This document shows positions 23,216 to 52,673 of a stretch of DNA of 64,000 nucleotides, piece after piece. The position numbers and the translations under genes were made by a program. This stretch comes from an uncultured Clostridia bacterium. GTDB lineage: Bacteria; Bacillota; Clostridia; Oscillospirales; JAAYOS01. How positions within the stretch are numbered: the first letter of the stretch is position 1; the number at the start of each line of letters is the position of its first letter. A model generated the notes under the pieces. The model worked only from the letters and a program-made list of their open reading frames with translations. It did no database searches and was not told where the DNA came from. The stretch is from positions 1,301 to 65,300 of the forward strand of contig CANRJS010000009.1 of assembly GCA_947631015.1 (NCBI GenBank), in the 5' to 3' direction.

Positions 23216-24625
23216 TTGGCTCGCACACGCAGCTATGAAATGGATATGGTCAATGGGCCGCTGCTCGGCAAGATATGCCGGTTCGCGTTCCCGCTCGCTC
23301 TGTCGAGCATGCTCCAGCTTCTGTTCAACGCGGCGGACATCATCGTCGTCGGCAACTGGGGCAGCGACACTTCGCTTGCCGCCGTCAGCTCCACCGGCTC
23401 GATGGTCAACCTCATCGTCAACCTCTTTATCGGTCTGTCGATAGGCACAAACGTCCTCGTCGCGCGCTACTACGGCTCGGGCGACCGCGAGATGCTCGAA
23501 CGCGTGGTACATACCTCCATCGCGACGAGCCTCGCCGCAGGCGCGATACTCGCCGTCATTGGCTGGTTCTTCGCCCGCCCGATGCTCGAGCTGATGGGCT
23601 CGCCCGAAAACGTCATCGACCAGTCCGCGCTGTACGTGCAGATCTTCTTCCTCGGTATGCCGGGAAATATGCTCTACAACTTCGGCGCGGCGGTGCTCCG
23701 TTCGGTGGGCGACACGCGCCGCCCGCTCTACTTTCTCATGATCGCGGGCGTGCTGAACGTCCTGCTCAATCTGCTGTTCGTCATAGTGTTTAAAATGGAC
23801 GTCGCGGGCGTCGCGGTAGCGACGATAATCTCGCAGTACGTCTCCGCCGCGCTCGTGCTGATATGCCTCGTGAAGAGCGACGGGCCGTACCGCGTTTATC
23901 TCCGCCGCCTGCGCATACACCTCGACATGCTTTGGGGGCTTGCACGCATCGGCATCCCGGCGGGCATCCAGGGCATCATCTTCTCCCTGTCCAACGTGAT
24001 AATCCAGTCGTCGATAAACTCCTTCGGCTCGGTCGTCATGACCGGCTCGGGCGCGGCGGCAAACCTCGAGGGCTTCGTGTACGTCGCGATGAACTCGTTC
24101 TATCAGGCGGCTCTCAGCTTCACCGGACAGAACATGGGCGCGGAGAAGTACGAGCGTATCGACCGCGTGCTCCTGCTCTGCGAGATGATGGTAACGATAG
24201 TCGGTATCGTGCTCGGCGTGGGCGTGTACCTTCTCGGCCACCCGCTCCTTTCCATCTACACAAACGACGAGGTCGCGATACAGTACGGCATCGACCGTCT
24301 GCTGCTTCTGAGCGCGCCGTACTTCCTGTGCGGTATGATGGACGTTCTCTGCGGTGTCATGCGCGGAACCGGCTACTCGTTTATCCCGATGGTCGTGTCG
24401 ATACTCGGCGTATGCGGTTCGCGCATACTCTGGATATACACGATATTCGCCATGCACCACACGCTTTTCACGCTCTTCATCTCCTACCCCATTTCGTGGG
24501 CGGCAACGGCGCTTATCCACCTGCTCAGCTACTTCCTGCTGAAGAAATACAAGCTGAATCCGATGAAGAAGAAGCGCGACGAACGGCTCGCCGCCGAAGC
24601 GGCGCCTGCGGCGGCCGCCGTGTGA
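23216..24625 (+). CDS. MATE family efflux transporter
   Basis: FAFPLALSSMLQLLFNAADIIVVG, LRSVGDTRRPL, GVAGVAVAT; exact start uncertain. Confidence 0.92.
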   Translation: MARTRSYEMDMVNGPLLGKICRFAFPLALSSMLQLLFNAADIIVVGNWGSDTSLAAVSSTGSMVNLIVNLFIGLSIGTNVLVARYYGSGDREMLERVVHTSIATSLAAGAILAVIGWFFARPMLELMGSPENVIDQSALYVQIFFLGMPGNMLYNFGAAVLRSVGDTRRPLYFLMIAGVLNVLLNLLFVIVFKMDVAGVAVATIISQYVSAALVLICLVKSDGPYRVYLRRLRIHLDMLWGLARIGIPAGIQGIIFSLSNVIIQSSINSFGSVVMTGSGAAANLEGFVYVAMNSFYQAALSFTGQNMGAEKYERIDRVLLLCEMMVTIVGIVLGVGVYLLGHPLLSIYTNDEVAIQYGIDRLLLLSAPYFLCGMMDVLCGVMRGTGYSFIPMVVSILGVCGSRILWIYTIFAMHHTLFTLFISYPISWAATALIHLLSYFLLKKYKLNPMKKKRDERLAAEAAPAAAAV

Positions 24626-24712
24626 CGCCGTCAAACTCCATAGAATTTTCGCATTTTCCCCGGGAATATTTGTCGTATGGTCACAAATATCCCCGGGGAA
24701 ATCATTTTGTGC

Positions 24713-24741
24713 TTTACAAAACGGGCGTCAGGATATAAAAT
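24713..24741 (+). promoter_or_regulatory. sigmaA promoter of aromatic amino acid operon
   Basis: TTTACA-N17-TAAAAT. Confidence 0.7.
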
Positions 24742-24772
24742 ATTCGTAAGTTCAAAAGCGAGGTTTCAACCT

Positions 24773-24877
24773 ATGTCTGACTGTTCGCGTAAAAACGGAT
24801 ACTTCTACTTTAGCTTCAGCTTTGCCGGCTATTACTTCGGCAAGGCTTGTTCTGCTGTGGAAGACGTCAGGGCATAG
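24773..24877 (+). CDS. Phe/Tyr-rich leader peptide (34 aa), candidate attenuator peptide
   Basis: SD GAGGT; MSDCSRKNGYFYFSFSFAGYYFGKACSAVEDVRA*; 5 Phe and 4 Tyr in codons 10-22. Confidence 0.85.
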   Translation: MSDCSRKNGYFYFSFSFAGYYFGKACSAVEDVRA

Positions 24878-24896
24878 ACAGTTAATTCTGTGCAGC

Positions 24897-24932
24897 AACG
24901 CTCCGCGGCAGACCGCCGCGGAGCGTTTTTGT
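24897..24932 (+). terminator. Attenuator terminator upstream of aroF
   Basis: 13-bp stem AACGCTCCGCGGC/GCCGCGGAGCGTT followed by TTTGTT; lies between the leader ORF and aroF. Confidence 0.85.
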
Positions 24933-24987
24933 TCCGCGCGGCACGCGGAACGGGCCCCGCTTTCAAAAAGTATCGGAGGAATTCAAA

Positions 24988-26001
24988 ATGATCGTCATTC
25001 TCAAGCAGAACCCGGACAAGGCGCAGCTCGACATGCTTACAAAGTGGCTCGACGACATGGGCATAAGCGTCCATACGACCGTCGGCCACCTTCAGACCAT
25101 CCTCGGTCTCGTCGGCGACACCTCGAAGGTCGACATCGACCTCATTCAGGCGCTCGACATTGTCGAGGACGTCAAGCGCGTCCAGGAGCCGTTCAAGAAC
25201 GCGAACCGCAAGTTTCACCCGGACGACACCGTCGTCGACGTCGGCGGCGTAAAGATAGGCGGAGGAAACTTCCAGGTCATAGCGGGCCCGTGCTCGGTCG
25301 AGAGCGAGGAGCAGATATGCGCCGTCGCAAAGGCGGTAAAGGCGTCCGGCGCGACGCTGCTGCGCGGCGGCGCGTTCAAGCCGCGCACCTCGCCCTACTC
25401 CTTCCAGGGACTGCGCGAGGACGGCATCCGTCTGCTTGTCGAAGCCAAGCGCGAGACCGGACTGCCGATAGTCACCGAGATAATGGACCTCTCCCAGCTC
25501 GGCCTGTACGACGATGTGGATATGATTCAGGTCGGCGCGCGCAACATGCAGAACTTCGAGCTTCTGAAGGAGCTCGGACATCTCCGCAAGCCGATACTCC
25601 TCAAGCGTGGCCTCAGCTCCACGCTCGAGGAGCTGCTGATGAGCGCCGAGTACATCATGGCGGGCGGCAACGAGCAGGTCGTGCTCTGCGAGCGCGGCAT
25701 CCGCACGTTCGAGACCTACACCCGCAACACTCTCGACATCAGCGCCGTGCCCGTCCTCAAGGACCTCAGCCACCTCCCCGTCATAGTCGACCCGAGCCAC
25801 GCCACCGGCAAGCATTCGCTCGTCCCGCCGACCGCGCTCGCGGCGGTCGCCGCAGGTGCGGACGGTCTCATCATAGAGGTTCACAACGACCCGGCGCACG
25901 CCCTCTGCGACGGCCCGCAGTCGCTCACCCCGAAGAACTTCGAGCGCCTCATGCGGAGCATCGACGCGCTCCGTCCCTATGCCTACGGGCGCGAGGCGTG
26001 A
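24988..26001 (+). CDS. aroF: DAHP synthase (type I-beta, N-terminal regulatory domain)
   Basis: [40 protein letters not shown]. Confidence 0.97.
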
Positions 26002-26005
26002 CCGT

Positions 26006-26845
26006 ATGAATATAGGTATAGTCGGCCTCGGCCTGATAGGCGGGAGCATGGCGCGCGCGATAAAGCGCTCCGGCGCAGGCCACACGGTCTACGCGTGCAA
26101 CCGCTCGAAGGCGCCGCTCGAAGCGGCGCTCGGCGAGGGCGTCGTTGACGCTGTCCTCACCGACGAGACTCTCCCTCTCTGCGACCTCGTGCTCGTCGCG
26201 CTCTATCCCCGCTCCACGGTGGACTACGTGCTCGAGCACGCACCCCTCTTCTCGCTCGATACTGCCGTCGTTGACCTCTGCGGCGTGAAGGGCGCCGTCT
26301 GCCCCGAATGCTTCGAGGCGGCGCGCGAACACGGCTTCGCCTTCATCGGCGGACATCCGATGGCGGGCCGCGAGATCTCCGGCTTCTCCGCATCTCAGGA
26401 GGAGCTGTTCGACGGCGCTTCGATGATACTCGTCCCGCCGGAGGACGTCGACCCCGACCTCATGAGCTCGCTTCACGACTTCTTTCTGTCGCTCGGTTTC
26501 GGACGGATAACCGTATCGACGATGGAGCGGCACGACCGCGTCATAGCCTACACCTCCCAGCTCGCGCACGTAGTCTCGAACGCCTACGTCCAGAGTGAGA
26601 CCTCCGCGATGCACGGCGGCTTCTCCGCCGGCAGCTTCAAGGACCTCACCCGCGTCGCGCGGCTCAAGGTGGATATGTGGACCGAGCTCTTTCTTGACAA
26701 CCGGGATGCGCTCTCCTGCGAGCTGCGCGGCCTTATAGACCGCCTCTCGGCGTTCGAGAGCGCGATAAGCTCCGGCGACGCGGAGACGCTTGCCGTGATG
26801 CTCGAGCGCGGCGTCGAGATGAAGGAGGCAAGCGAAAATGTCTGA
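26006..26845 (+). CDS. tyrA: Prephenate dehydrogenase
   Basis: GIVGLGLIGGS, GGHPMAGRE, HDRVIAYTSQLAH. Confidence 0.93.
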   Translation: MNIGIVGLGLIGGSMARAIKRSGAGHTVYACNRSKAPLEAALGEGVVDAVLTDETLPLCDLVLVALYPRSTVDYVLEHAPLFSLDTAVVDLCGVKGAVCPECFEAAREHGFAFIGGHPMAGREISGFSASQEELFDGASMILVPPEDVDPDLMSSLHDFFLSLGFGRITVSTMERHDRVIAYTSQLAHVVSNAYVQSETSAMHGGFSAGSFKDLTRVARLKVDMWTELFLDNRDALSCELRGLIDRLSAFESAISSGDAETLAVMLERGVEMKEASENV

Positions 26846-27923
26846 CGTGATACGCGTCCACGTCTCCGCCGACCCGATAGACGCCGCGCCGGACGCGCGC
26901 GGCTATGACATACACATCGGCGAAGGGCTGCTCGAGCACCTCGTCGACTTCTTCCCTCTGCGCGGCGGCGCGCCGGACGGCTTCGCTCTCGTCACGGACG
27001 CGAACACCGACCGTCTTTTCGGCGGCCGCGCCGAAAAGACGCTCGGGCGCATGGCTCCCGTGACACGGATAGTCATGCCGGGCGGCGAGGAAAACAAAAA
27101 TCTCACGACGCTCGGCGCGATACTCGAGCGCATGGCGGCGGCAAAGCTCACCCGCCGCTGCGCCGTCGTCGCGGTCGGCGGCGGGATAGTCGGCGACGTC
27201 GCCGGCTTCGCCGCCGCGAGCTATCTGCGCGGCGTCCGTCTCATGCAGGTTCCGACGACGCTTCTCGCCGCCGTCGACAGCTCGGTCGGCGGCAAGACCG
27301 CTGTGAACCTCTCGGCGGGCAAGAACCTCGCGGGGGCGTTCCACCAGCCCTCCGCCGTCGTCTGTGACACGTCGCTTTTCGCGACCCTCACCCCGGACCT
27401 CGTCGGTGACGGCACGGCGGAGGCTCTGAAGCACGGCGTTCTTTCGAGCCGCGAGCTCTTCCGCGACACCGCCGCGAACGGCGCGCTCCGCCCGGAGATC
27501 ATAGCCGCGAACGTGACGTTCAAGGCAAACGTCGTCGCGGCGGACACGCGCGAGAGCGGCGCGCGCAAGCTTCTGAACCTCGGTCACACCTTCGGCCACG
27601 CGATAGAGAAATGCAGCGGATACGCCGTCTCGCACGGTCACGCCGTCGCGATAGGAACGGCGATGGCGGCGCGCGCCGCCTGCTCGCTCGGCATCCTTCC
27701 CACGTCCGACCGCGATGAGATAACGGACGGCATCCGTGCGGCGGGCCTCCCCACCGGGACTGACATCCCCGCCTCCGAGCTCGCCGAGGTGATGCTCTCG
27801 GACAAGAAGCGCTCGGGCGACGGGATAGACTTCATCCTCCCCGAGACGGTCGGCCGCTGCCGCATAGTCCGCATATCCACCGACCGGCTCGGCGGCGTTC
27901 TCGCCGCCGCCGGCGCGAAATAA
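26838..27923 (+). CDS. aroB: 3-dehydroquinate synthase
   Basis: GGGIVGDVAGF, PTTLLAAVDSSVGGKT, LNLGHTFGHAIE. Confidence 0.97.
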   Translation: MSDVIRVHVSADPIDAAPDARGYDIHIGEGLLEHLVDFFPLRGGAPDGFALVTDANTDRLFGGRAEKTLGRMAPVTRIVMPGGEENKNLTTLGAILERMAAAKLTRRCAVVAVGGGIVGDVAGFAAASYLRGVRLMQVPTTLLAAVDSSVGGKTAVNLSAGKNLAGAFHQPSAVVCDTSLFATLTPDLVGDGTAEALKHGVLSSRELFRDTAANGALRPEIIAANVTFKANVVAADTRESGARKLLNLGHTFGHAIEKCSGYAVSHGHAVAIGTAMAARAACSLGILPTSDRDEITDGIRAAGLPTGTDIPASELAEVMLSDKKRSGDGIDFILPETVGRCRIVRISTDRLGGVLAAAGAK

Positions 27924-27932
27924 GGAGACGCC

Positions 27933-29123
27933 ATGGACATCAGGATAACCCCGCACCGGCTCTCGGGCTCGCTACGCGCGATACCCTCCAAGTCGGACGC
28001 GCACCGTCTGCTGATACTCGCCGCGCTCGCGGAAAAGGAGACCTTCGTGGGCTGCCCCGACATCTCGCGTGACATCGACGCCACCGCGTCGCTCCTCCGC
28101 GCGCTCGGCGCGGGCGCAGAGCGCGCGGAGGACGGCTTCCTTGTGACGCCGGTGTCCTCCGTTCCCGCGTCGCCGCTCACGCTCGACTGCCTCGAGAGCG
28201 GCTCCACGCTCCGCTTCCTGCTCCCCGTCGCGGCGGCGCTCGGCGTGAACGCAACATTCGTCGGGGAGGGACGCCTCGGCGAGCGTCCGATGCTCCCCCT
28301 CACCGCCGCTCTGCGGAGCGGCGGCGTCTCCGTCTCCGCCGACCTCCTGCCGATAGAGATAAGCGGCAAACTTCGTTCCGGAGAGTACGAGCTCCCGGGC
28401 AACATAAGCTCGCAGTTCATCAGCGGTATGCTGATGGCGCTTGCGCACCTCGGCGGCGGCTCGGTTCGCCTCACAACGGCGCTCGAGAGCGCGGGCTACG
28501 TCGACATGACCCTGCGGACGCTCGAGCGCTTCGGCGTGTCGGTCTCGCGCGGCGGCGGGATGTTTGCCGTGTCCGGCAGAGTTCGCTCGCCCGGCCGCGC
28601 GGACGCGGAGGGCGACTGGTCCTCCGCCGCGTTCTGGCAGGAGGCGAACACCTTCGGCTCGGACGTCTCGGTCGAGGGACTTGACGACGCTTCCGCACAG
28701 CCCGACCGCGCCGCCGCGCAGTTGCTTCAATGTCTCGGCGGCACGGTGGACGTCAGCGGCTCGCCCGACCTCTTTCCCGCGCTCGCGCTCGCGGCGTCCG
28801 CCGCCCGCGAGAAAACGGTCTTTGTCGGCGGCGCGCGCCTGCGTCTGAAGGAGAGCGACAGGATAGCCACCGTCGCGGCGGCGCTTCGCGCGCTCGGCGG
28901 CGTCTGCCGCGAGACCGATGACGGTCTCGCGGTCGAGCCCTCGCCCCTCTCCGGCGGCGAGGTCGACGGCGCGGGCGACCACAGGATAGTTATGGCGGCG
29001 GCGGTCGCGGCCGCCCACGCCTCCGGCGAAACCGTCATACGCGGCGCGGAGGCCGTCGAAAAGAGCTATCCGGGATTCTTTGAAGATTTTACTCATCTGG
29101 GAGGGATAGTCCATGTCCTCTAG
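27933..29123 (+). CDS. aroA: EPSP synthase
   Basis: PSKSDAHR, ESGSTLRFL, SSQF, RLKESDR, DHRIVMA, KSYPGFF. Confidence 0.96.
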   Translation: MDIRITPHRLSGSLRAIPSKSDAHRLLILAALAEKETFVGCPDISRDIDATASLLRALGAGAERAEDGFLVTPVSSVPASPLTLDCLESGSTLRFLLPVAAALGVNATFVGEGRLGERPMLPLTAALRSGGVSVSADLLPIEISGKLRSGEYELPGNISSQFISGMLMALAHLGGGSVRLTTALESAGYVDMTLRTLERFGVSVSRGGGMFAVSGRVRSPGRADAEGDWSSAAFWQEANTFGSDVSVEGLDDASAQPDRAAAQLLQCLGGTVDVSGSPDLFPALALAASAAREKTVFVGGARLRLKESDRIATVAAALRALGGVCRETDDGLAVEPSPLSGGEVDGAGDHRIVMAAAVAAAHASGETVIRGAEAVEKSYPGFFEDFTHLGGIVHVL

Positions 29124-30216
29124 CTTCGGCGAAGCGTTCAGGGTTACGGTATTCGGCGAGTCGCACGGTGCGGGCATCGGCGCCGTCGCGGAGGGCTTTC
29201 CCGCGGGCGAGCACATCGACCCGGACGCGCTTGCGCGCTTCATGGCGCGCCGCGCCGGAGGCAAGAGCTTCTCGACACAACGCCGCGAGGCGGACAGTCC
29301 CCGCTTCCTCGGCGGCATAAGGGACGGCGTCCTCACCGGCGCGCCGCTCTCTCTCTTTATCGAGAACGCCTCGCAGCGCTCCTCGGATTACAGGTCCTTT
29401 GAGAACATACCCCGTCCGTCCCACGCGGACTATCCGATGTACGTTAAGTACGGCGGATACGCCGACCGCGCGGGCGGCGGACACTTCTCCGGCCGCCTCA
29501 CCGCCGCGATATGCGCCGTCGGCGGCATGGCAAAGCAGATACTCGCGCGGCGCGGCATATACGTCGGCGCGCACGCCGCCGCGATAGCGGGGGTGCGCGA
29601 CGCGGCGTTCGACCCCCTCCGCGTCACCCGCGCGGAGCTCGAGGCGGCAGGCAAAAAGGAGTTTCCCGCGCTCGACGACGACGCCGCCGAAAGAATGCTC
29701 GCGGCGATAGCCTCCGCGCGCGCCGAGTGCGACAGCGTCGGCGGCACAGTCGAGTGCACCGCCGTCGGACTGCCCACGGGGCTTGGCGAACCGCTCTCGG
29801 GCGGCGTTGAGAACCGCCTGTCTGCGGCAATGTTCACCCTCGGCGCGGTGCGCGGCATAGAGTTTGGGGACGGCTTCGCCGCCGCCGAGATGCGCGGCTC
29901 GGAGCACAATGACGGCTACGGCCTCTCGGACGGCAGAGTGACGCCGCTCACGAACCACGCCGGCGGCGTCCTCGGCGGCATGACGACCGGCGCGCCGCTT
30001 CTCTTCCGAGTCGCGTTCAAGCCGACGCCGTCCATCTCGAAGCCGCAGCGGTCGGTCGACCTCGCGAACGGCAGGGAGACCGAGCTTGTCATCGCGGGCA
30101 GGCACGACCCGTGCATCGTCCCGCGCGCCGTCCCGTGCGTTGAAGCGGTGACGGCCTGCGTGCTTCTCGACCTCATCCTCGGAAACAAAGGAGTGAGCGA
30201 AAATGGAACTCTCTGA
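29113..30216 (+). CDS. aroC: Chorismate synthase
   Basis: FGESHG, RPSHAD, SGRLTA, FKPTPSI, GRHDPCIVPRA. Confidence 0.97.
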   Translation: MSSSFGEAFRVTVFGESHGAGIGAVAEGFPAGEHIDPDALARFMARRAGGKSFSTQRREADSPRFLGGIRDGVLTGAPLSLFIENASQRSSDYRSFENIPRPSHADYPMYVKYGGYADRAGGGHFSGRLTAAICAVGGMAKQILARRGIYVGAHAAAIAGVRDAAFDPLRVTRAELEAAGKKEFPALDDDAAERMLAAIASARAECDSVGGTVECTAVGLPTGLGEPLSGGVENRLSAAMFTLGAVRGIEFGDGFAAAEMRGSEHNDGYGLSDGRVTPLTNHAGGVLGGMTTGAPLLFRVAFKPTPSISKPQRSVDLANGRETELVIAGRHDPCIVPRAVPCVEAVTACVLLDLILGNKGVSENGTL

Positions 30217-31330
30217 ACTTCGCGCCCGGCTGGATGTGCTGGATAAACAGCTTCTTGCGCTCTTCACGGAGCGCATGGGCATCGCCGCCGACGTGGCGGC
30301 TGTGAAGAAGCGCGACGGGCTCGCGCTCTACCAGCCCGACCGCGAACAGCAGATACTCGAGCGCGTCGGCGCGGAGGCTGGCGAGCTCGGCGGATATGCC
30401 CGCGCGCTATTCTCCACGCTGATGGCTCTCAGCCGCAGCTATCAGGCGCACCTCGGCGGCGCCGGGGACGACATCGTGCGTGCGTTTGACAGCGCCTCCG
30501 TGCGGGACGACTTCCCGCGCGGAGGGAACGTTGCGTGTCAGGGCGTCACCGGAGCGTTTTCCGAGGAAGCGTGCCTCGGCCTCATGCCGGACGCGCACAT
30601 ACTCTTCTTCAAGAACTTCGACGCGGTGTTCTCCGCCGTGGAAAGCGGTCTCTGCGCCTACGGAGTGCTTCCCGCCGAAAACTCCACCCACGGCACGGTG
30701 AGCCGAGTCTACGACCTCATGCTCGAGCACCGCTTCAGCATCGTCCGCTCGACGAAGCTGAAGGTCTCGCAGTCGCTTCTCGCGCCAAGTGGCGTCGGTC
30801 TTCGCGACATACGCGAGGTGATAAGCCACGAACAGGCGCTCGGACAATGCAGAGCCTACCTCGAAAAGCTCGGCGTCACGGCGACCGCCGTCGAGAATAC
30901 GGCGGTTGCGGCAAAGACCGTCGCGGAGAGCGGACGGCGCGACCTCGCGGCGCTGTCTTCCGCGCGCTGTGCCGAGCTGTACGGGCTCGACGTCCTCGCG
31001 GAGGACGTCCAGGACGAGAGCTCGAACTTCACCCGCTTCATCTGCATAGCGCCGGAGATGCGGATATACCCCGGCGCAAACAAGCTGAGCTTTGTCTGCT
31101 CGCTTAAACACATTCCCGGCGCGCTCTACTCGCTCATAAGCCGTATAGCCGCGCTCGGTCTGAACCTCACGAAGCTCGAGAGCCGCCCGATACCCGGGCG
31201 CGACTTCGAGTTCACCTTCTACTTCGACATCGAGGCCGACCCGTCCGACCCGGACGTCCGTGCGCTGATAGGCGAGCTTGAGACCGTGACCGAGAGCTTC
31301 CGCTTCCTCGGCGCTTACTCGGAGGTGTAG
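30203..31330 (+). CDS. pheA: Bifunctional chorismate mutase/prephenate dehydratase
   Basis: N-terminal CM (LRARLDVLDKQLL), PDT ENST...GTV, SHEQALGQC, NFTRF, ACT LTKLESRP. Confidence 0.95.
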   Translation: MELSELRARLDVLDKQLLALFTERMGIAADVAAVKKRDGLALYQPDREQQILERVGAEAGELGGYARALFSTLMALSRSYQAHLGGAGDDIVRAFDSASVRDDFPRGGNVACQGVTGAFSEEACLGLMPDAHILFFKNFDAVFSAVESGLCAYGVLPAENSTHGTVSRVYDLMLEHRFSIVRSTKLKVSQSLLAPSGVGLRDIREVISHEQALGQCRAYLEKLGVTATAVENTAVAAKTVAESGRRDLAALSSARCAELYGLDVLAEDVQDESSNFTRFICIAPEMRIYPGANKLSFVCSLKHIPGALYSLISRIAALGLNLTKLESRPIPGRDFEFTFYFDIEADPSDPDVRALIGELETVTESFRFLGAYSEV

Positions 31331-31331
31331 C

Positions 31332-32582
31332 ATGAAGCTCGGTCTTATTGGAAACCCGCTCGGCCACAGCTACTCCGCTATAATACACAAGCGGTTCGGC
31401 GGGGACTACTTCCTGCACGAGCTTGAGCGGAAGGAGCTTGCGGACTTTCTCACGCATGGCGAGTGGGACGGGCTCAACGTCACCATTCCATACAAGCGGG
31501 ACGTCATTCCCTTCTGCTCCGAGCTCGGCTCCGCCGCGCGGGCGATAGGCAGCGTGAACACGCTCGTCCGCCGTCCGGACGGCAGCATATTCGGAGACAA
31601 CACCGACTACACCGGCTTTCTCGCCCTCTCCCGCCGCGCCGGCGCGGACTTTGCGGGAAAGAAGGTGCTCATCCTCGGCTCGGGCGGCACGTCGCTCACG
31701 GCGCGCGCCGTCGCGCGGGACGAGGGCGCGCGGGAGATACTCGTCGCGAGCCGCACCCCCTCCGGCGAGGGAATGATAGGCTACGGCGACATAGACCGCC
31801 ACCTCGACGCGGACATACTTATAAACACCACGCCCGTCGGGATGTTCCCTAATGAGGACGCCGTTCCGGTCGAGCCGGAGCGCTTCAGTCGGCTTGAGTG
31901 CGTACTTGACGTGATATACAATCCGCTCCGCACCGAGCTTGTCCGCCGCGCCCGCGCCGCCGGGATACCGGCCTGCGGCGGGCTGTACATGCTCGTCTCT
32001 CAGGCGGAGGCGGCGCGGAAGATCTTCGGCGCGGAGAACCGCGCCTCCTGCGAGGATGTCTACTCCGGCCTTCTCCGCAGCCGCGAGAACGTCGCCCTCA
32101 TCGGTATGCCGGGGTGCGGAAAGAGCACCGTCGGCGCGCTCGTCGCGGCGGCGCTCGGGCGCGAGCTCGTCGACACCGACGAGATGGTCGAAAAGGCGGC
32201 GGGGATGACCGTCCCCGAGATATTTGCCGCCGAGGGAGAGGCGGGCTTCCGCCGCCGCGAGCGCGCGGCGATCGCCGAGGCGTCCACCCTGCGCGGCGCG
32301 GTCATCGCCACCGGCGGCGGCGCTCCGACCTTCGAGCAGAACCGCGCGGCGCTCCGCCGTTCGGCGCGGGTGTACTATGTCGAGCGGGACGTCGCTCTGC
32401 TCTCGACCGACGGGCGGCCGCTCTCGACCTCGCGGGAGCGCCTGCACACAATGCTTGCAGAGCGGACGCCGTCCTACCTTGCCTGCTCGGACGTCAGCGT
32501 GAAAAACGACCGCCGTCCGGAGGACGCGGCGGTGGAGATAGTGAGGGATTTCAATGAAAATTCTTGTGATCAACGGGCCTAA
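31332..32582 (+). CDS. Shikimate dehydrogenase-shikimate kinase fusion (AroE-AroK)
   Basis: GNPLGHSYS, NVTIPYK, GDNTD; C-terminal LIGMPGCGKSTVG, ATGGG. Confidence 0.93.
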   Translation: MKLGLIGNPLGHSYSAIIHKRFGGDYFLHELERKELADFLTHGEWDGLNVTIPYKRDVIPFCSELGSAARAIGSVNTLVRRPDGSIFGDNTDYTGFLALSRRAGADFAGKKVLILGSGGTSLTARAVARDEGAREILVASRTPSGEGMIGYGDIDRHLDADILINTTPVGMFPNEDAVPVEPERFSRLECVLDVIYNPLRTELVRRARAAGIPACGGLYMLVSQAEAARKIFGAENRASCEDVYSGLLRSRENVALIGMPGCGKSTVGALVAAALGRELVDTDEMVEKAAGMTVPEIFAAEGEAGFRRRERAAIAEASTLRGAVIATGGGAPTFEQNRAALRRSARVYYVERDVALLSTDGRPLSTSRERLHTMLAERTPSYLACSDVSVKNDRRPEDAAVEIVRDFNENSCDQRA

Positions 32583-32997
32583 CATCAACATGCTCGGCAT
32601 ACGCGAGCCGGACGTCTACGGAAAGAACACCTACGCCGACCTCTGCGAATTTGTCAAGCAATCGGCGGAGGAACTCGGCGTCGAGGTCGAGCTGTTCCAG
32701 TCGAACCACGAGGGAAGCATCGTCGACCGCATACAGGAGGCATACGGGAATATCGACGGTATCGTCATCAATCCCGCCGCCTACACGCACACGTCGGTCG
32801 CGATACTCGACGCGCTGAAGGCCGTGTCGATACCCGCGGTCGAGGTCCACATCTCGGACGTCGCGGCGCGCGAGGATTTCCGACAGATAAGCTACGCCGG
32901 TATGGCGTGCGTGAAAACCTACAAGGGTCTCGGCTTCGAGGGCTACCGCGAGGCAATGAAGTTCCTCACAGAATACGCCGGGAAGTCCGTCGAATGA
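32554..32997 (+). CDS. aroQ: Type II 3-dehydroquinate dehydratase
   Basis: NGPNINMLGIREP, QSNHEG, INPAAYTHTS, EVHIS. Confidence 0.97.
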   Translation: MKILVINGPNINMLGIREPDVYGKNTYADLCEFVKQSAEELGVEVELFQSNHEGSIVDRIQEAYGNIDGIVINPAAYTHTSVAILDALKAVSIPAVEVHISDVAAREDFRQISYAGMACVKTYKGLGFEGYREAMKFLTEYAGKSVE

Positions 32998-33431
32998 GCG
33001 GCGCGGAGACTATGGACGGCTGCATCTTCTGCCGGATAGCAAACGGCTCCGCACCCTGCATGAAGGTGTACGAGGACGAACACACCGTGGCGTTTCTCGA
33101 TGTTGCGGGCGACGTGGACGGTCACATACTCGCTGTCCCGAAAAAGCACGTGAAAAGCATCCTCGACTGCGACGCGGAGACGCTTTCCCGCCTCACCGAG
33201 ACGGTTCGGCTCATCTCGAAGCATCTCACGGAGAACTGCGGCTACGACGGCGTGAACCTCCTGAACGCCAGCGGCGCGAGCGCCGGACAGTCGGTGCCGC
33301 ACCTGCATGTCCATATCATCCCGAGGCGGAGCGGCGACGGCATAGACGCGTGGCCGCGCTTCGGCGGAGCGAAGGAGGATCCGGCGGTACTCCTCGAAAA
33401 GCTCGCTGTCTGGAATGAAAAAAGGTTATGA
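32994..33431 (+). CDS. HIT family protein
   Basis: CIFC, GQSVPHLHVHIIPR; start overlaps the aroQ stop. Confidence 0.92.
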   Translation: MSGAETMDGCIFCRIANGSAPCMKVYEDEHTVAFLDVAGDVDGHILAVPKKHVKSILDCDAETLSRLTETVRLISKHLTENCGYDGVNLLNASGASAGQSVPHLHVHIIPRRSGDGIDAWPRFGGAKEDPAVLLEKLAVWNEKRL

Positions 33432-33500
33432 ATTTCCCATGGCGCGGCGTGAAATTTTCACGCCGCGCCCGAAATATCGGCTGATATTTCCTCCCCGCTA

Positions 33501-40129: not shown

Positions 40130-40500
40130 CAAATCGCAGGAGCGGGCAAAAGCCCGCTCCTTTACAAATTTGCCGCGAGATTTTCGCAGGAAATCGCGCG
40201 GGCTTCGCCCGCGACCTATTTCCTGCGAAGCCGCCGGACAGAACAAGTTCTGCCGACGGCAAGCGCTGCGCTGCGCGTCGATTTTCCGCCTTCGGCGGAA
40301 AATCGACGCACGCTCCGCGAGAAGTATTTTTTTGCTTTAATTCGCAGAAAATCGGGACGTCGGCGCGAAGCGCCGAGGTCTGATGCGCCCGGTAGAGTGT
40401 TGGATGCGGTATAAGTTCGAGGGCGCATTATACACGCCGCCGGAAAAAATAAATTGAAATCTATTTCGCGCCTGTCGGTGCGAAACTCTGCGAGGCTTTT
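40130..40500. repeat. Family-2 modular palindromic intergenic repeat cluster
   Basis: Modules TCGGCGCGAAGCGCCGAGGTCTGA (40360) and GCGAAACTCTGCGAGG (40480) recur at other loci. Confidence 0.85.
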
Positions 40501-40511
40501 TTGACAAGCTG

Positions 40512-40546
40512 AAAGGCGCTCCGAAACGATGTTTCGGGGCGCCTTT
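40512..40546. terminator. Bidirectional terminator-like hairpin
   Basis: AAAGGCGCTCCGAAAC-gat-GTTTCGGGGCGCCTTT with T tract. Confidence 0.7.
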
Positions 40547-40568
40547 TTGTCTAACGTCTTGCGGCGGA

Positions 40569-41579
40569 TCATTCCCACTCCTCGCCCTGCTCCCACATAT
40601 ACTCCCGGTACTCGTTCACTCCGCGGAGTATGAGGCCGCGCACGTTGAGCCCGAACCGGCAGCGGTCGGCGCAGTAGCCGCAGCCGACGCATTTTGTAGC
40701 AAGGCGCATCTTTCCGCGCGTCTCCGCGTCGGTGTACGCACCGCGCGGCGCGATGTGGATAATATACCCCGCCCGCGCCGCGAACGGTATGTCGATACCG
40801 ACGGGGCACGGCATACACTCCCCGCAGCCCCGGCAGAGCATACCGGCGTTCATTTCGCGCTCGCCCTCTATCCTCTCGCGCAGGAGCTTTGTGGACCTCG
40901 GCGGCTTGCGCTCGAGCGCCGCCGTCTCATCTATCTGCCACGGGTACTCCGCGCCCCAGAGCGGGTGGACCTTCCCGACGTCGCGCAGGAACGCCATGGC
41001 GCACGCCGCCGAGCGGAGGAGCCCTCCCGCCATCGGCATGGACGCGAAGAAGTATACGCCGTGCTCTTCCGCGAGCGCCGCGAGCTCCAGCTCCTCCGGC
41101 GCGGAGAGACTGTTCAGAGGATACACGACGGCGTCAAAGAAGCCGCCGCATACCGCCTCACGCGCACACTCAAGCGACTCGGGGGCAAGCCCGAGGCTCC
41201 GCACTTTGCGGCTCCGCTTCGCCTCCGTCATTGCCTCGCGCAGTTCGTCCGACATGTCCTCCGGGCGGATGCCGCGCAGACAGAGGACGTCGACGTACTC
41301 CGTCCCGAGCGCGCGCAGGCTCTCGTCAAGACCGCGGCGGAAGTCCTCCGCGTCGGACGCGCGGACGTCGGCGAGAAGCAGGTACTCCGAGCGCTCGACA
41401 CCCTCGAGCCCTCGCGCGACGCGCTCCTCAATGCCGGGGTACTCGCGCGTCGCGGCGAACAGCCGCATGCCGCCGTCGTAGGCTCGCCTCACGAGAGCCG
41501 CGCCCTCGCGCTTTTCGAGCCGTCCGAGCCTCTTACAGTCGAGGCCGCCCTTCCCTCTCCTGAGCCCTTTCAACGTCAT
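40569..41579 (-). CDS. Aldo/keto reductase with C-terminal 4Fe-4S dicluster
   Basis: SLRALGTEYVDVL, MPMAGGLL, CRGCGECMPCPVGIDIP, CVGCGYCADRCRF. Confidence 0.85.
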   Translation of the reverse strand: MTLKGLRRGKGGLDCKRLGRLEKREGAALVRRAYDGGMRLFAATREYPGIEERVARGLEGVERSEYLLLADVRASDAEDFRRGLDESLRALGTEYVDVLCLRGIRPEDMSDELREAMTEAKRSRKVRSLGLAPESLECAREAVCGGFFDAVVYPLNSLSAPEELELAALAEEHGVYFFASMPMAGGLLRSAACAMAFLRDVGKVHPLWGAEYPWQIDETAALERKPPRSTKLLRERIEGEREMNAGMLCRGCGECMPCPVGIDIPFAARAGYIIHIAPRGAYTDAETRGKMRLATKCVGCGYCADRCRFGLNVRGLILRGVNEYREYMWEQGEEWE

Positions 41580-41650
41580 CTTCGTAACCTCCGCTTTGTC
41601 GGTGTGCAGGGTCTTACATTCAAGCGTATTCTACCACGTTTTGGCGCGCG

Positions 41651-43207
41651 CTACAAGCGTTTTACCGATTCAGCGCGCCGGGACGCGCTTTTTCCCACCG
41701 CGGTTCCCGCGCCGACGCCCTGCGCCGTTGCCGCCGCGAGGTAGCACACCGCCGCCGCCAGTACCCCTCCGGCGAGCGCCATGCCGTCCGGCAGGAGTTC
41801 CCCGAGGTAGAGATACGCGAGCCGCGCGACAAGTCCCGCGAGCACCGCCGACGCGAGCGGCGCGACAAACCATCTCCGCCACTCCGCCGCAAGTCCGCAT
41901 GTCGAGAGTACGAGCCGGAAGTTCAGCGCGAAGGTGAGCGCCGTGCTCGCGACGAACGCCGCGACGTAGCCCGCCATCCGCAGCCCCGGCAGGCGCACGA
42001 GCAGAACGACCATCGCAAGCTCCACGGCGTTGCCGAGAAGGAAGTTCACCGCCGAGATGTTCTGTTTTCCGAGTCCGTTGAGGATGCTCCCGCATATCGC
42101 CATGTATATCGAGAACGCCGTGCCAATCGCGATAGGCAGGAGGTATGCCGGGTCGACCCTCTGTCCGAACATATACCACCCGAGCGTGTCCCCGAGTGGC
42201 ACGAGCACCGCGAGCACCGGGAGTATGACAAAGCTCGTCGCGAGTATACAGCGTGAGACCTTGTGCCGCAGGTCCGCCATGTTGCCTGTGGCGAGGTTTT
42301 CCGAGAGTTTCGGCACCATCACGAGCCCGAGGCCGACGATGAGCGCGGAGGGAAGGTTAAAGAGCGGCATCGCCATCCCGAAGAGCACGCCGAACTCCCC
42401 GAGCGCCTGCGACTGCGTGAGTCCGCTCCGCACGAGCATCCTCGGGATAAGTATGACTATGAGCGAGGAGATGATGTTGTTTGCGAGGTTCGTGACGCTC
42501 ACCGGCGCGGCGATTGCGAGTATCCTCCGCGTCATGTGGCGGTCGCCCTCGCCGCCCTGCGGCAGGCGGGCGGACTTCCTGCGGTACACGAGGCGGAGAA
42601 AGCCGCTGCTTGCCACCTCGCACACGAGCATCCCCGCGGCGATGAGAGCGAGCATCCGGTCGTCCGGCTGGGGCAGGAACAGGCGGAGCAGTCCCACCAC
42701 TGCCGTCATGCGGACGACCTGCTCCATCAGGTCGCTGAAGGCGGGAGGGTTCACCTCCTTCGTGCCGTAGAGGTAGTTCTTATGTATGTTCTCTATGCCG
42801 GTAAAAAGTATCACCGGTATGAGGACGTACACCGCGAGGCGCGTGCGTTCGTCGCCGAGGAACCTCTCCGCTATCGGTGCGGCGAATATCCCCGCGCCGA
42901 CGCTTATCACGGCAAATATCCCGAAGAACGCCGCGAGCGCACGCCGGACGAGTCCGCGCAGGGCGGCGTAGTTCCGGAGCGCCATATACTCCGCCGCGAG
43001 GCGGCTCACCGCGACGCAGATACCGCTCGTCCCGAGCGCGAGCGCGAGCGAGTAGAACGGGAATATCAGCTGAAAGAGCCCCATCCCCTCCGCGCCTATC
43101 AGCCGCGAGAGCAGCATCCTGTACACGAACCCGAGGAGCTGTGAGAGAATGTTTGCCCCCGTCAATATAAAAGCGCCGTAGCGCACCGACCGCGTGTCTA
43201 TGCCCAT
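41651..43207 (-). CDS. spoVB: SpoVB/MurJ-like polysaccharide flippase (stage V sporulation protein B)
   Basis: GAFILTGANILSQLLGFVYRMLLSRLIGAEGMGLFQL; SD GGAGGT before ATG 43207; an upstream in-frame ATG at 43486 also has an SD. Confidence 0.85.
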   Translation of the reverse strand: MGIDTRSVRYGAFILTGANILSQLLGFVYRMLLSRLIGAEGMGLFQLIFPFYSLALALGTSGICVAVSRLAAEYMALRNYAALRGLVRRALAAFFGIFAVISVGAGIFAAPIAERFLGDERTRLAVYVLIPVILFTGIENIHKNYLYGTKEVNPPAFSDLMEQVVRMTAVVGLLRLFLPQPDDRMLALIAAGMLVCEVASSGFLRLVYRRKSARLPQGGEGDRHMTRRILAIAAPVSVTNLANNIISSLIVILIPRMLVRSGLTQSQALGEFGVLFGMAMPLFNLPSALIVGLGLVMVPKLSENLATGNMADLRHKVSRCILATSFVILPVLAVLVPLGDTLGWYMFGQRVDPAYLLPIAIGTAFSIYMAICGSILNGLGKQNISAVNFLLGNAVELAMVVLLVRLPGLRMAGYVAAFVASTALTFALNFRLVLSTCGLAAEWRRWFVAPLASAVLAGLVARLAYLYLGELLPDGMALAGGVLAAAVCYLAAATAQGVGAGTAVGKSASRRAESVKRL

Positions 43208-43512
43208 ACATACCTCCGCCGGATACCGATTATAGCTGCCGGAAGGCGAACCCGTGGTGCTCCACGCGGGCTCTTTTCGTCGCTTTTCTGTTTGTCGTCG
43301 CCGGTTTGCGTCAGCAAAACCGGCTCCTCCGCGCAGAAAATCATCCGAAAATAGTTCCGCGTGGAGTGCAGGCAGTTTTCGCCGAGCGGGTTTGCGTTCG
43401 GTGGGGAAAAGCCCGCCGGGAATACTGCCGTATTTCCAAGGGTTCCGGCGCCGCACGGGCGCAAACCCGCCGTCGAAAACCATCATGGGTTCACCTCTCG
43501 TCAGCTATATCC

Positions 43513-43542
43513 ATCTATATTTCCGCACGGAAGAATTTAGAA
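43513..43542 (-). promoter_or_regulatory. sigmaE-like promoter upstream of spoVB
   Basis: TTCTAAA-N14-AATATAGAT. Confidence 0.5.
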
Positions 43543-43549
43543 TTTGCGC

Positions 43550-45143
<1,594 letters not shown>

Positions 45144-45178
45144 CAGCTGTCATTTATAATCACGGTTCGCAAATGCGC

Positions 45179-45212
45179 CGGGGCGTACAGAGTTGTCTGT
45201 ACGCCCCGTTTT
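45179..45212 (+). terminator. Intrinsic terminator after abfA
   Basis: CGGGGCGTACAGA-gttg-TCTGTACGCCCCG-TTTT. Confidence 0.85.
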
Positions 45213-45307
45213 GCGGTCCAAAAAAAATTTTCAAAAATTTTGTCCCGAAAACGTCATGACCGGACATATACAGGCAGAACTAAAAACACCGCAAGGAGGT
45301 CATGAAA

Positions 45308-46393
45308 ATGTCAAAGAAGAAGCTCTTTTCGGCGCTCTGCCTTATACTCGCCGCGCTCGTCCTTCCCGCCTGCTCGGGCGGAGAAAAGGAGCCGGACGCC
45401 CTCACCTTCACCGTGCCCGAGACGTTCACCTCGGGAAGCGCCGGACAGTTTGAAGTCACCATGCTCGGGCTCACAAGCAGAAACCTGCTTATTTATCCCG
45501 GCATCGGCATAGAGCTCAAGATACAGAGCACCGACGGTCTCTACTATCTGTTTGGGGATACCGTCTGGGAGATGGGTTTGCTCCAAAGCGGAGAGCCCGG
45601 ACGGTACGGCACGGTCGAACGCGAGGAGGGCGGCGAGTGGGTCGACTGCGGCAGCGTTTTTGACGGAAGTACCACTTCAACGACGTCCATGGGATATGGG
45701 CTCTTTGTCCCGCCGCCGTGCGTTCACGGCCGCTTCATTCGTCCCTATGAGGCAGCCTACAACCATCAGTATATGCGGATAGAGCTCAGCGATACGCTCC
45801 CCGGCCGCTATCGCGCCCGCGTCGCCGTGCGGGAGTACATCCCGAGGTGGAACGAGGACAATATACCCTTCAAGCCGTTGAACGGCGAGGAACCGCTGTC
45901 CTTCGGCGGCACCACGGGCGAGGCGACGGATGAGATAGTCGTTGAATTCGACATACCGAGGTTCGGAAGCGGCCCGTTGGGCGTGCTGGGGTACTCCCTT
46001 TCCGACGAGAGCCGCACGGACTCGGTGATTGGCGACCGGGCGATAGCTTATTTCGATCTCCTGCTTCACGCCAACGGAGACATAAGGTACCTGCAAAACG
46101 ACTCCGTAAAGTTTGAATATCCGGACGGTGCGGGGTATTCGGAGGTGCCCGACGGCGTGGTTTGCGGCTTTGGCAGCGACGATTACTACAACTATCCGTA
46201 TCGGCATCTCCACGACAAAGACGGCATAGACTACACCACTCCCGACGTTGTTCCCATCGGCTCGATAATTTTCCGAGACTGGAACAGGGAGACGACCTAC
46301 CGCCTCTCGATGACCTTTACCGAGAACGAGGACGGCTCGGGCGAAGCCTACACCCTCTACCTGTATCTGAACTTTGCGGAAGCGGTCGAGTAA
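45308..46393 (+). CDS. Hypothetical lipoprotein
   Basis: Basic N-terminus, hydrophobic core, lipobox LPAC; SD AGGAGG; no family recognised. Confidence 0.8.
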   Translation: MSKKKLFSALCLILAALVLPACSGGEKEPDALTFTVPETFTSGSAGQFEVTMLGLTSRNLLIYPGIGIELKIQSTDGLYYLFGDTVWEMGLLQSGEPGRYGTVEREEGGEWVDCGSVFDGSTTSTTSMGYGLFVPPPCVHGRFIRPYEAAYNHQYMRIELSDTLPGRYRARVAVREYIPRWNEDNIPFKPLNGEEPLSFGGTTGEATDEIVVEFDIPRFGSGPLGVLGYSLSDESRTDSVIGDRAIAYFDLLLHANGDIRYLQNDSVKFEYPDGAGYSEVPDGVVCGFGSDDYYNYPYRHLHDKDGIDYTTPDVVPIGSIIFRDWNRETTYRLSMTFTENEDGSGEAYTLYLYLNFAEAVE

Positions 46394-46464
46394 CACTCTC
46401 TGGCATTTCGCAGGCTCCCGCAACAAATAACGGACGGTGCGATAAATCGCACCGTCCGTTGCAG

Positions 46465-46680
46465 CCTCGCAGAGTTTCGCCGCTTTAGCGGCGAAACAAA
46501 GTTAAATCATTTTCGGCGGCGGCGTGTACGTCGCCGAAAATACCTCTCGCGTAGCGCGCGTCGAAGGCGGCAAAGCCGTCGAGGCGCGAAGCGGAGCGCT
46601 CGCCGTCGGCAAGGCTACGCCTTGTCCGACGGCTTCGGCGCGAAAGGGTGCGCAGCGAAGCGAGCACATTTCGCGCCGAA
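46465..46680. repeat. Family-2 repeat cluster
   Basis: CCTCGCAGAGTTTCGC start; 46465-46600 is a near-colinear inverted copy of 49620-49755. Confidence 0.85.
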
Positions 46681-46682
46681 TG

Positions 46683-48506: not shown

Positions 48507-48581
48507 ACTATATGAACCTCCGTAAAAGGCAGATTTCAAAACACACAATACAGTATATTACAAGACTCTCCACCGTGTCAA

Positions 48582-48610
48582 GCATACCGCGTCCCCGCAC
48601 CGCATATATA
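48582..48610 (+). promoter_or_regulatory. sigmaE-like promoter
   Basis: GCATACC-N14-CATATATA. Confidence 0.45.
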
Positions 48611-48638
48611 TTTGCAGGCGTTACAGGGGGTGGATATT

Positions 48639-49196
48639 ATGAAAGTGTTAGTTGCGGGCGGAAAGCGCGACCTCTCGCGGGCGGCGATAACCGTCCTCTC
48701 GGCCGTCATACTCGTGGCGGGAATAGTGGGCATTTCGGCGATATGGAACAGCCCCTCCGCCTCTGCGGAGGGAACGGCGGTCATGGCGGACGGGACGGAC
48801 GACTTCGTCGTCTCGGCGGCGCTCGGCGCGCTCGGCAAATTGGGCGCGCATTCGAACACCGAGGCGATAGAGGTCTGGGCGGAGGGCGTCGTGTCGCGGA
48901 ACGGACTCATGCAGTACTCGGTGATGAGCGCGGAGCTCGGCGAACGCTATCTCGAGATACTCGGCGACGACGTGATGATAGAGCCGACGGCCGCGTCGGT
49001 GGACAGCTGGTACGCGTCCGACATAGTCGAGGGCGAGACCGAGACGAAGGCGACGCTGCTCTTCACCGTGTCGGAGGACGGAAAGAGCGTCGCGGCGTCG
49101 GCAGAGCTCACGCTTACCGAGGAGGGCGAGTATACGGTGATAAGCTCGCTCACCGTCGAAAGTCCGCTCTACGACTTCACCGGGATACGCGCATAG
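48639..49196 (+). CDS. Hypothetical secreted or membrane-anchored acidic protein
   Basis: N-terminal hydrophobic segment, host-like codon usage, SD-like GGGGG. Confidence 0.75.
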   Translation: MKVLVAGGKRDLSRAAITVLSAVILVAGIVGISAIWNSPSASAEGTAVMADGTDDFVVSAALGALGKLGAHSNTEAIEVWAEGVVSRNGLMQYSVMSAELGERYLEILGDDVMIEPTAASVDSWYASDIVEGETETKATLLFTVSEDGKSVAASAELTLTEEGEYTVISSLTVESPLYDFTGIRA

Positions 49197-49319
49197 CTCG
49201 CCGGGAAAACGGCGCGGCGCGGAGCCGTCCGCGCATCAAAACAATGGAATTTTTTGGCGGCATAAAACGCTCCGGGGCGAGGTAAAATATTGCCGAACTC
49301 GCTAAAGGAGGCGTTTAAA

Positions 49320-49526
49320 ATGACCGACAGAATTGCTCTGATTCTTTCTATAATCGGCGCGCTGAACTGGGGTCTTATAGGCATTTTCAAGTTTGATCTC
49401 GTGGCGTGGATCTGCGGCGGCCAGACTGCGGCGATAAGCCGCGTGATATACACGCTGGTCGGGCTTGCGGGTATATGGTGTATCTCGCTGCTCTTCCGCA
49501 AGCGTTCCGCGATAAGCGAAAACTAG
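49320..49526 (+). CDS. DUF378 family small membrane protein
   Basis: IIGALNWGLIGIFKFDLVA...SRVIYTLVGLAG. Confidence 0.92.
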   Translation: MTDRIALILSIIGALNWGLIGIFKFDLVAWICGGQTAAISRVIYTLVGLAGIWCISLLFRKRSAISEN

Positions 49527-49529
49527 TAG

Positions 49530-51640: not shown

Positions 51641-51642
51641 TT

Positions 51643-52654: not shown

Positions 52655-52673
52655 CCTCTCCTCCTGAAATAAT

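Follow-up and report, generated by a model that had tools for sequence, protein, structure and literature searches.

In E. coli, the pheA and pheST genes are regulated by leader-peptide attenuation. Leaders of related design have been described directly before aroF: aroR of C. glutamicum carries Phe and Tyr codons and governs a DAHP synthase operon by ribosome-mediated attenuation (Neshat et al. 2014, as described in PMC11802643), and uORFC-13-1, represented by 24 Acholeplasma and environmental sequences located exclusively upstream of aroF, combines a promoter, a ribosome-binding site, a U-run coding Phe (“at least one” Phe codon), a neighboring intrinsic terminator and a further base-paired element (Brewer et al. 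2021, PMC8632094). Within the Firmicutes, His-leader attenuators have been predicted in the Bacillus cereus group, Peptostreptococcaceae and Erysipelotrichales, where the pathway is without T-box or repressor control (PMC9413887). Here we analyze the leader of the shikimate-Phe-Tyr (aro) operon within a 64,000-nucleotide (nt) stretch of an uncultured Clostridia bacterium (contig CANRJS010000009.1, assembly GCA_947631015.1; hereafter the window, whose numbering is used throughout), together with the corresponding loci of related genomes. Judging from the sequence analyses below, we assign a probability of roughly 85% to the reading that this leader is a classical ribosome-mediated leader-peptide transcription attenuator, by which expression of the aro operon would follow the availability of charged tRNA-Phe and, probably, tRNA-Tyr.

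An earlier note on this DNA, written from its letters alone, had proposed such an attenuator, and the positions it gave for promoter, Shine-Dalgarno (SD) sequence, upstream open reading frame (uORF), hairpin, antiterminator segment and terminator all proved exact. The elements of the leader are as follows.

24713-24741, + strand: sigma-70/sigmaA-type promoter, with −35 TTTACA at 24713-18, a 17-nt spacer and −10 TAAAAT at 24736-41 (10 of 12 matches)
24760-24763, + strand: SD sequence GAGG of the leader ORF, 9 nt 5′ of the ATG at 24773
24773-24877, + strand: leader uORF of 34 codons plus TAG (24875-77), product MSDCSRKNGYFYFSFSFAGYYFGKACSAVEDVRA
24800-24838, + strand: regulatory codon run, Y F Y F S F S F A G Y Y F (9 of 13 codons Phe/Tyr, 0 Trp)
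24802-24813, + strand: region 1 (5′ arm of the anti-antiterminator), lying on the first Tyr-Phe-Tyr-Phe codons; its partner is 24852-63
24818-27 / 24838-47, + strand: inner hairpin AGCTTTGCCGG / CCGGCAAGGCT, nested in the 1:2 helix (about −16.6 kcal/mol), with a Phe codon in its 5′ arm; candidate pause hairpin
24847-24852, + strand: TTGTTC tract, a near match to the relatives’ TTNTTT and a candidate NusG-dependent pause motif
24851-24867, + strand: region 2, whose partner is region 1 (terminating state) or region 3 (antiterminator)
24898-24912, + strand: region 3, comprising most of the terminator 5′ arm plus 3 nt of the loop, sequestered by region 2 in the read-through state
24897-24933, + strand: intrinsic terminator, a 13-bp stem (24897-24909 / 24915-24927) with loop AGACC, followed by the T-run TTTTTGTT

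The promoter is the sole promoter-like site within 24300-25300, and transcription would start at about 24748-50, some 25 nt upstream of the leader ATG. The terminator stem (24897-24927) contains 10 G-C pairs and has a folding energy of −26.9 kcal/mol; its T-run ends ~60 nt before the start of aroF at 24988, which is preceded by an SD sequence of its own (GGAGG, 24975-79). The exact leader peptide of the window has been gene-called on 13 public contigs. A density of at least eight F/Y/W residues within 12 occurs in one of the 675 small ATG-started ORFs on both strands of the window, the leader uORF itself, and in none of the 5,959 small ORFs of 80 related loci whose leader zone was masked; because this density is unmatched among ~6,600 background small ORFs, the Phe/Tyr enrichment lies above chance. 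A scan of the whole window for amino-acid-rich uORFs accompanied by a terminator likewise returned no case besides the aro leader.

Three pairings that exclude one another are open to the leader. The full-length transcript folds with an energy of −81.8 kcal/mol (z = −6.2 relative to dinucleotide shuffles), and in this fold 24852-63 pairs with 24802-13, the helix surrounding the hairpin at 24818-47. Removal of the terminator 3′ arm causes 24851-67 to pair with 24898-24912 instead, at −21.9 kcal/mol for this extended antiterminator compared to −14.5 ± 2.7 kcal/mol for shuffled partners (p ~0.01); its core, 24851-61 with 24902-12, is paired at 11 of 11 positions, two of them G-U, with an energy of −18.0 kcal/mol. 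The window layout is the classical four-region arrangement (1:2, 2:3 and 3:4) plus an inner hairpin. The earlier note had put forward exactly this core duplex, which is confirmed here and covaries in the relatives; folding of the alternative structures also recovered its hairpin and its 2:3 and 3:4 pairings, and added the 1:2 helix, which the note had missed.

We asked how widely this arrangement recurs by scanning the window DAHP synthase against one genome per species, which yielded 80 loci at 68-80% identity, 78 of them informative (L059 and L069 were set aside as having too little upstream DNA). These loci derive from Oscillospiraceae, Acutalibacteraceae, Oscillibacter (including the complete O. 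valericigenes genome), butyricicocci and a Faecalibacterium metagenome-assembled genome (MAG), as well as from MAGs labelled Lachnospiraceae, Eubacteriaceae, Victivallales/Lentisphaerae and Planctomycetia. An ATG-started F/Y-rich uORF (5-13 Phe/Tyr codons) and an intrinsic terminator precede aroF at 75 of the 78 informative loci, with the uORF located 160-250 nt upstream of aroF and the terminator, in nearly all, 21-86 nt upstream. At the three leaderless loci (L003, L067 and L070) aroF follows closely behind another ORF and is therefore probably not the first gene of its operon. Summed over 76 leaders, the peptides contain 389 F, 293 Y and 11 W residues (median of nine F/Y per leader), and both F and Y are found in 74 of the 76. 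An SD core of at least 4 nt is present in 65 of the 76 leaders compared to 24% of control ATGs, and 59 of the 76 have a promoter of at least 9/12 matches whose −10 element lies ~32 nt before the uORF ATG. Furthermore, a peptide profile search recovered at least 205 peptide clusters (90% identity) from public protein sets; among the 120 matches listed, every cluster is unnamed or called “hypothetical protein”, and six leader peptides searched against Pfam and NCBIfam gave no match at E ≤ 10.

Locus-by-locus folding revealed one shared architecture. Region 1 is typically GCAGCTGAA..ACCG, corresponding to the Ala-Ala-Glu-Tyr codons with which the run opens; region 2 in the relatives, typically CGGTTTGGCTG, pairs with it, and between the two sits an inner hairpin, AGCTTTACC/GGTAAGGCT. 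The alternative partner of the relatives’ region 2 is the upper half of the terminator 5′ arm plus the loop (CAGCCGAACC). To quantify these pairings, 65 leaders were aligned to a covariance model of the terminating conformation; the antiterminator was left out of the model, and the alignment is therefore not fitted to it. Across the 65 leaders, pairing reaches 98.5% in the terminator, where 10 of 10 pairs show compensatory changes, and 97% in the inner hairpin, again with compensatory changes; the 1:2 helix of the relatives is 63-74% paired, with compensatory changes at 10 of 11 pairs. For the antiterminator, 74.5% of cells are paired, compared to 20-47% when the partner is slid by one to three columns, and 8 of 10 pairs show compensatory changes; its covariation score of 0.242 exceeds the 0.156 ± 0.012 of shuffled controls, none of 500 shuffles being as high. 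The 1:2 and 2:3 column counts are underestimates, because the short-spacer subtype (TTGTTTCACTGCGG), to which the window belongs, was shifted by ~6 nt in region 2 by both the MAFFT and the covariance-model alignments. Finally, the summed energies of the cognate 2:3 duplexes amount to −1099 kcal/mol, compared to −840 ± 23 kcal/mol for permuted pairs, and 0 of 10,000 permutations reach the observed value (L027, in which the automatic terminator choice took a second hairpin, was excluded from the energy statistics). Covariation of the terminator loop with the coding sequence of the uORF is hard to explain except by the 2:3 helix. A search upstream of aroF orthologues for F/Y-rich uORFs and covarying antiterminators, which the earlier note had proposed, has thus found both, and its attenuator reading is supported by the 75 of 78 loci, by the covarying antiterminator and by the permutation result.

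The peptides themselves are constrained in a manner that follows the RNA. Their consensus is ..AEY.YFSFT.F.GKA.., and the Y that opens the run is conserved to at least 90%. The two arms of the inner hairpin are formed by the S-F-T and G-K-A codons, and region 1 by the A-A-E codons, while the residue preceding the Lys (G, S, D, C, R) varies together with the opposite hairpin arm; the C-termini vary in both length and sequence, and F and Y interchange. Since the non-F/Y residues follow the pairing, selection appears to act on the Phe/Tyr codons and on RNA pairing and not on the peptide product. This bears on two further explanations of the uORF. Gene callers do predict the peptide, and its clusters of “hypothetical proteins” number at least 205, as would suit a functional small hydrophobic protein with a terminator of its own and an aroF gene expressed from a separate promoter. 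We consider this extremely improbable, given that the gap of ~60 nt from terminator to aroF holds no promoter-like site, that non-aromatic residues track RNA pairing while the C-terminus varies and F and Y swap freely, and that the coding sequence covaries with a terminator loop for which a free-standing gene would have no need. Alternatively, the nascent peptide might arrest the ribosome in a TnaC-like manner in response to free Phe or Tyr, instead of responding to tRNA charging; the Lys and its neighbors are highly conserved, and nascent chains rich in aromatic residues can contact the exit tunnel. Yet pairing with S-F-T, in a covarying hairpin of which they form the 3′ arm, accounts for the conserved G-K-A codons, and the polarity would be wrong, as arrest by an abundant amino acid would favor read-through into the operon that makes it, and we give this explanation next to no weight.

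The spacing of the leader is consistent with control by a ribosome that stalls within the codon run. The last codon of the main F/Y cluster is followed by region 2 at a median distance of 16 nt (interquartile range 14-18), and in the window region 2 starts 13 nt past the last Phe codon; the median lies just outside the ~12 nt that a ribosome covers 3′ of its A site. We represented ribosome states at the 75 loci by folding only the RNA 3′ of a placed ribosome. Ribosomes placed on the first, middle or last F/Y codon are predicted to leave the terminator 5′ arm sequestered at 75, 75 and 71 of the 75 loci, respectively, compared to 21 of 75 for placement at the stop codon, which in the relatives lies a median of 23 nt past the start of region 2.

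On this basis, we propose the following mechanism. When Phe and Tyr are plentiful, the ribosome would pass region 2 toward the stop codon at 24875, such that region 2 could not capture region 3; region 3 would be left free, the terminator would form, and transcription would stop at the T-run ~60 nt before aroF. A shortage of charged tRNA-Phe or tRNA-Tyr would instead stall the ribosome within 24800-24838, where it would cover region 1 and melt the inner hairpin while leaving region 2 clear; 2:3 would then pair once region 3 has been transcribed, and the polymerase would read into the operon. Translation of the uORF, stalling and the sensing of both amino acids are all inferred from sequence.

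The conserved segment that directly follows the inner hairpin may add a pause to this mechanism. In the E. coli trp leader, a pause at the 1:2 hairpin holds the polymerase for the ribosome. Directly 3′ of the inner hairpin, the 65 aligned leaders show a T T N T T T tract, with T in 52, 56, 62, 58 and 43 leaders at the five T positions; exact TTNTTT is found in 35 of the 65 and at least four of the five Ts in 49, and the encoded amino acids are variable (Y/C/F/S, then F/L/S). In Gram-positive bacteria, the NusG-dependent pause signal consists of TTNTTT at −11 to −6 of the non-template strand and is strengthened when a hairpin lies 11-13 nt upstream of the pause (PMC9963633). By analogy, the inner hairpin and T-tract fit the geometry of a NusG pause, which would fall inside region 2, and a hairpin-stabilized pause of this type could delay the polymerase until the arriving ribosome opens the inner hairpin. 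Such sites have been described in the B. subtilis trpE, ribD and vmlR leaders, which likewise present a hairpin and then TTNTTT, with the pause 11-12 nt past the hairpin (PMC9963633); in the aro leaders the likeness consists of the motif match, and coupling to a translating ribosome, as opposed to a protein or ligand, would be the difference.

Several observations weigh against the attenuator reading or parts of it. First, the 1:2 helix is the pairing with the weakest support, partly through the misalignment of the short-spacer subtype. Second, a ribosome at the stop codon of the window (A site at 24875) would cover ~24860-87 and mask just the 3′ part of region 2, and in about half of the relatives the stop-codon ribosome would not overlap region 2 at all. 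The earlier note had such a ribosome mask the antiterminator segment, which holds for the 3′ part of that arm and fails for the remainder, which stays uncovered. With masking at the stop partial or absent, termination under sufficiency would therefore probably rest on timing and steric exclusion: the ribosome would be crossing region 2 while region 3 is being synthesized, a 2:3 helix could not form around it, and 1:2 would re-form behind it. Third, the truncated window transcript adopts the antiterminator even when no ribosome is placed on it, and termination in the untranslated state must therefore be kinetic, with 1:2 forming first. Fourth, the pause tract of the window, TTGTTC, is a weaker match, the last three Ts being critical for NusG pausing. 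Finally, the Phe-Tyr-Phe leader of C. glutamicum answered Phe and not Tyr, in that aroR-aroF read-through rose under Phe limitation and Tyr was without effect (PMC11802643).

For this last reason dual sensing is not assured, and the leader might sense phenylalanine alone, with the Tyr codons as tolerated filler. TAT and TAC are each one base from TTT and TTC, and F outnumbers Y in the family (389 vs 293). The Tyr codons are nevertheless abundant and conserved in position, as at the opening codon of the run; both residues occur in 74 of 76 leaders, and the operon carries tyrA as well as pheA. We therefore regard sensing of Phe alone as unlikely and dual sensing of Phe and Tyr, judged from codon content, as plausible.

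The gene content referred to here is that of the following operon.

24988-32997, + strand: aroF-tyrA-aroB-aroA-aroC-pheA-aroEK-aroQ, genes overlapping or at most 9 nt apart

These overlaps and short gaps are the grounds for treating the genes as one operon. Pfam assigns to its products DAHP synthase, prephenate dehydrogenase, dehydroquinate synthase, EPSP synthase, chorismate synthase, chorismate mutase-prephenate dehydratase, a shikimate dehydrogenase-shikimate kinase fusion (aroE-aroK) and type II dehydroquinase. Both tyrA and pheA, for the Tyr and Phe branches, are present and trp genes are absent from the operon, matching the codon set of the leader; the earlier note had described this gene content, and the Pfam assignments bear it out.

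A remaining explanation is that a trans-acting factor, whether an RNA-binding protein, a tRNA or a small ligand, sets the switch, the uORF being incidental. T-boxes, TRAP-like proteins and riboswitches are common for amino-acid operons of Firmicutes (general knowledge; PMC9413887), and the aro leader is highly structured. At the gathering score, however, Rfam returned no T-box, riboswitch or leader family in the whole window or in nine related loci, and even at E ≤ 10 it returned no T-box, riboswitch or leader family (Phe_leader, Trp_leader, His_leader, Leu/Thr leaders and others) within 24600-25050, where no model relevant to the leader was found; a T-box was also sought in the relatives, including the three leaderless loci, and none was found, in agreement with the earlier note, which had seen no T-box motif here. 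Weak microRNA (miRNA) and small RNA matches on the leader at E ≤ 10 were rejected as palindrome noise. Moreover, an incidental ORF would not be expected to retain its ATG, SD sequence and 5-13 in-frame Phe/Tyr codons over 75 diverged loci as the remaining peptide drifts, and no conserved unpaired core resembling a ligand pocket is seen beyond the helices and the T-tract. Control by a trans-acting factor is accordingly very improbable.

Some of the related loci depart from the main type. Among the MAGs labelled Victivallales, Lentisphaerae or Planctomycetia (L018, L041, L056, L065, L071, L037 and L069), the DAHP synthases are 70-75% identical to the Clostridia enzyme. Five of these (L018, L041, L056, L065 and L071) carry an F/Y-rich leader variant of their own, ~170-270 nt upstream of the DAHP synthase match (for example, MNLNSKFFFYFFSFAFFFRTRSPLAVASSI), which is without the G-K-A hairpin and in which the antiterminator arm begins at the end of the codon run; L037 has a leader of the main type. 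The presence of such leaders in these MAGs suggests horizontal transfer of the operon together with its attenuator, or mis-binning. A second divergent subtype (for example, MSRFVNFFFTYFYFYFIKQFNKVSLSCN), found at L060, L062, L064, L074 and L080 in MAGs with Lachnospiraceae or Eubacteriaceae labels, scores weakly against model R1 (33-38 bits); at two of these loci, L062 and L064, a distance of 100-190 nt separates the terminator from aroF.

Around the leader and operon in the window, several further features were observed. The N-terminus of aroF (24988-25190) encodes a ferredoxin-like FXD domain (Pfam PF18152) on the DAHP synthase. In Thermotoga-type DAHP synthases, aromatic amino acids exert feedback inhibition through this domain; were it to act likewise here, the pathway would be under dual control, allosteric and by the attenuator. 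Downstream, 15 nt past aroQ, lies a gene for a HIT-family hydrolase (33013-33431), which may be co-transcribed with the aro operon; a palindrome, GGCGCGGCGTGAAA/TTTCACGCCGCGCC, follows 3′ of it at 33441-33470 without a T-run, and the next gene encodes a GH5 cellulase with an upstream region of its own. Upstream, an imperfect 16-bp inverted repeat, CCCCGGGAATATTTGT-N8-CACAAATATCCCCGGGG (24655-24701), is situated between the stop codon of a MatE transporter gene (24625) and the aro −35 element (24713). Its T-tract is weak and its sole Rfam match is a chance miRNA; it might terminate the MatE transcript or serve as an operator for additional, protein-level control of the aro promoter.

Elsewhere in the window, interspersed intergenic repeats extend over 40150-58460 in both orientations, each ~150-450 nt long and 60-95% alike, with copies near 40150-40500, 46460-46650, 49557-49930, 51300-51660, 53810-54322, 56092-56490 and 58056-58455. 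Several copies are ~1.8-2.7 kb apart. Each consists of short G+C-rich hairpins in series (for example, GACCTCGGCGCGAAGCGCCGAGGTC and GAAGTTGGCGGCAAAGCCGCCAACTTC), and the copies look like mosaic elements of the repetitive extragenic palindrome/bacterial interspersed mosaic element (REP/BIME) kind or repeated cassette boundaries. Two adjacent tRNA genes on the minus strand (60536-60723) are the sole Rfam matches at gathering score in the whole window.

Taken together, these results make it most likely that a large group of gut and rumen Clostridia (Oscillospiraceae, Acutalibacteraceae, Oscillibacter and relatives) attenuates the whole shikimate-Phe-Tyr pathway by means of a leader peptide, and the T-box or protein control usually assumed for Firmicutes was not found at these aro loci. 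The family, sampled here in 75 genomes and at least 205 clusters, is absent from Rfam, Pfam and NCBIfam, and its addition would relabel many “hypothetical protein” calls. It would also offer a natural system for studying ribosome-polymerase coupling in Gram-positive anaerobes and NusG-type pausing in leader-peptide attenuation. The aromatic amino acids that gut commensals produce bear on metabolites relevant to the host, and knowing the switch aids the interpretation of metatranscriptomes. More tentatively, and with the odds against the full combination, the leader might represent a Gram-positive attenuator with a second checkpoint, a NusG pause inside region 2, with a graded response to the two end products of a branched pathway arising from the mixed Phe/Tyr run, and with a possible move of the operon and its attenuator into Victivallales; if true, the pause would synchronize transcription and translation in bacteria in which these two processes are otherwise thought to be coupled loosely.

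With regard to known systems, the mechanism is classical, and the family is large, supported by covariation and appears to be undescribed. A literature search returned no paper describing a clostridial aro-leader family, the broad survey of Lopatovskaya et al. (2010) lying outside this search and possibly containing an earlier prediction. The earlier note did not recognize such an attenuator as described for clostridial aro operons; this stands insofar as no description of this family was found, and has to be qualified in that Phe/Tyr or Phe leaders before DAHP synthase genes have been published (aroR and uORFC-13-1) and his attenuators are known in Firmicutes. In this comparison of leaders, none of the Rfam 15 models matches the window or the checked relatives. 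Compared by description only, uORFC-13-1 is alike in placing a uORF and terminator before aroF; aroR, again compared by description only, has a single Phe-Tyr-Phe motif and belongs to another phylum, whereas the clostridial leaders have 5-13 F/Y codons. The His leaders of Firmicutes carry 3-5 His codons, serve another operon in other lineages and have no sequence relationship to the aro leader. The E. coli pheL-pheA and trpL systems share its logic, with a short ORF rich in codons for the end product, those codons lying on region 1, the 1:2/2:3/3:4 alternatives and a terminator before the biosynthetic gene. There is no similarity to pheL in sequence or structure (no Rfam leader match at E ≤ 10), and the clostridial leader, occurring in Clostridia, mixes Phe and Tyr codons and adds a hairpin inside 1:2; whereas pheL governs pheA alone, it would govern the common pathway together with the Phe and Tyr branches.

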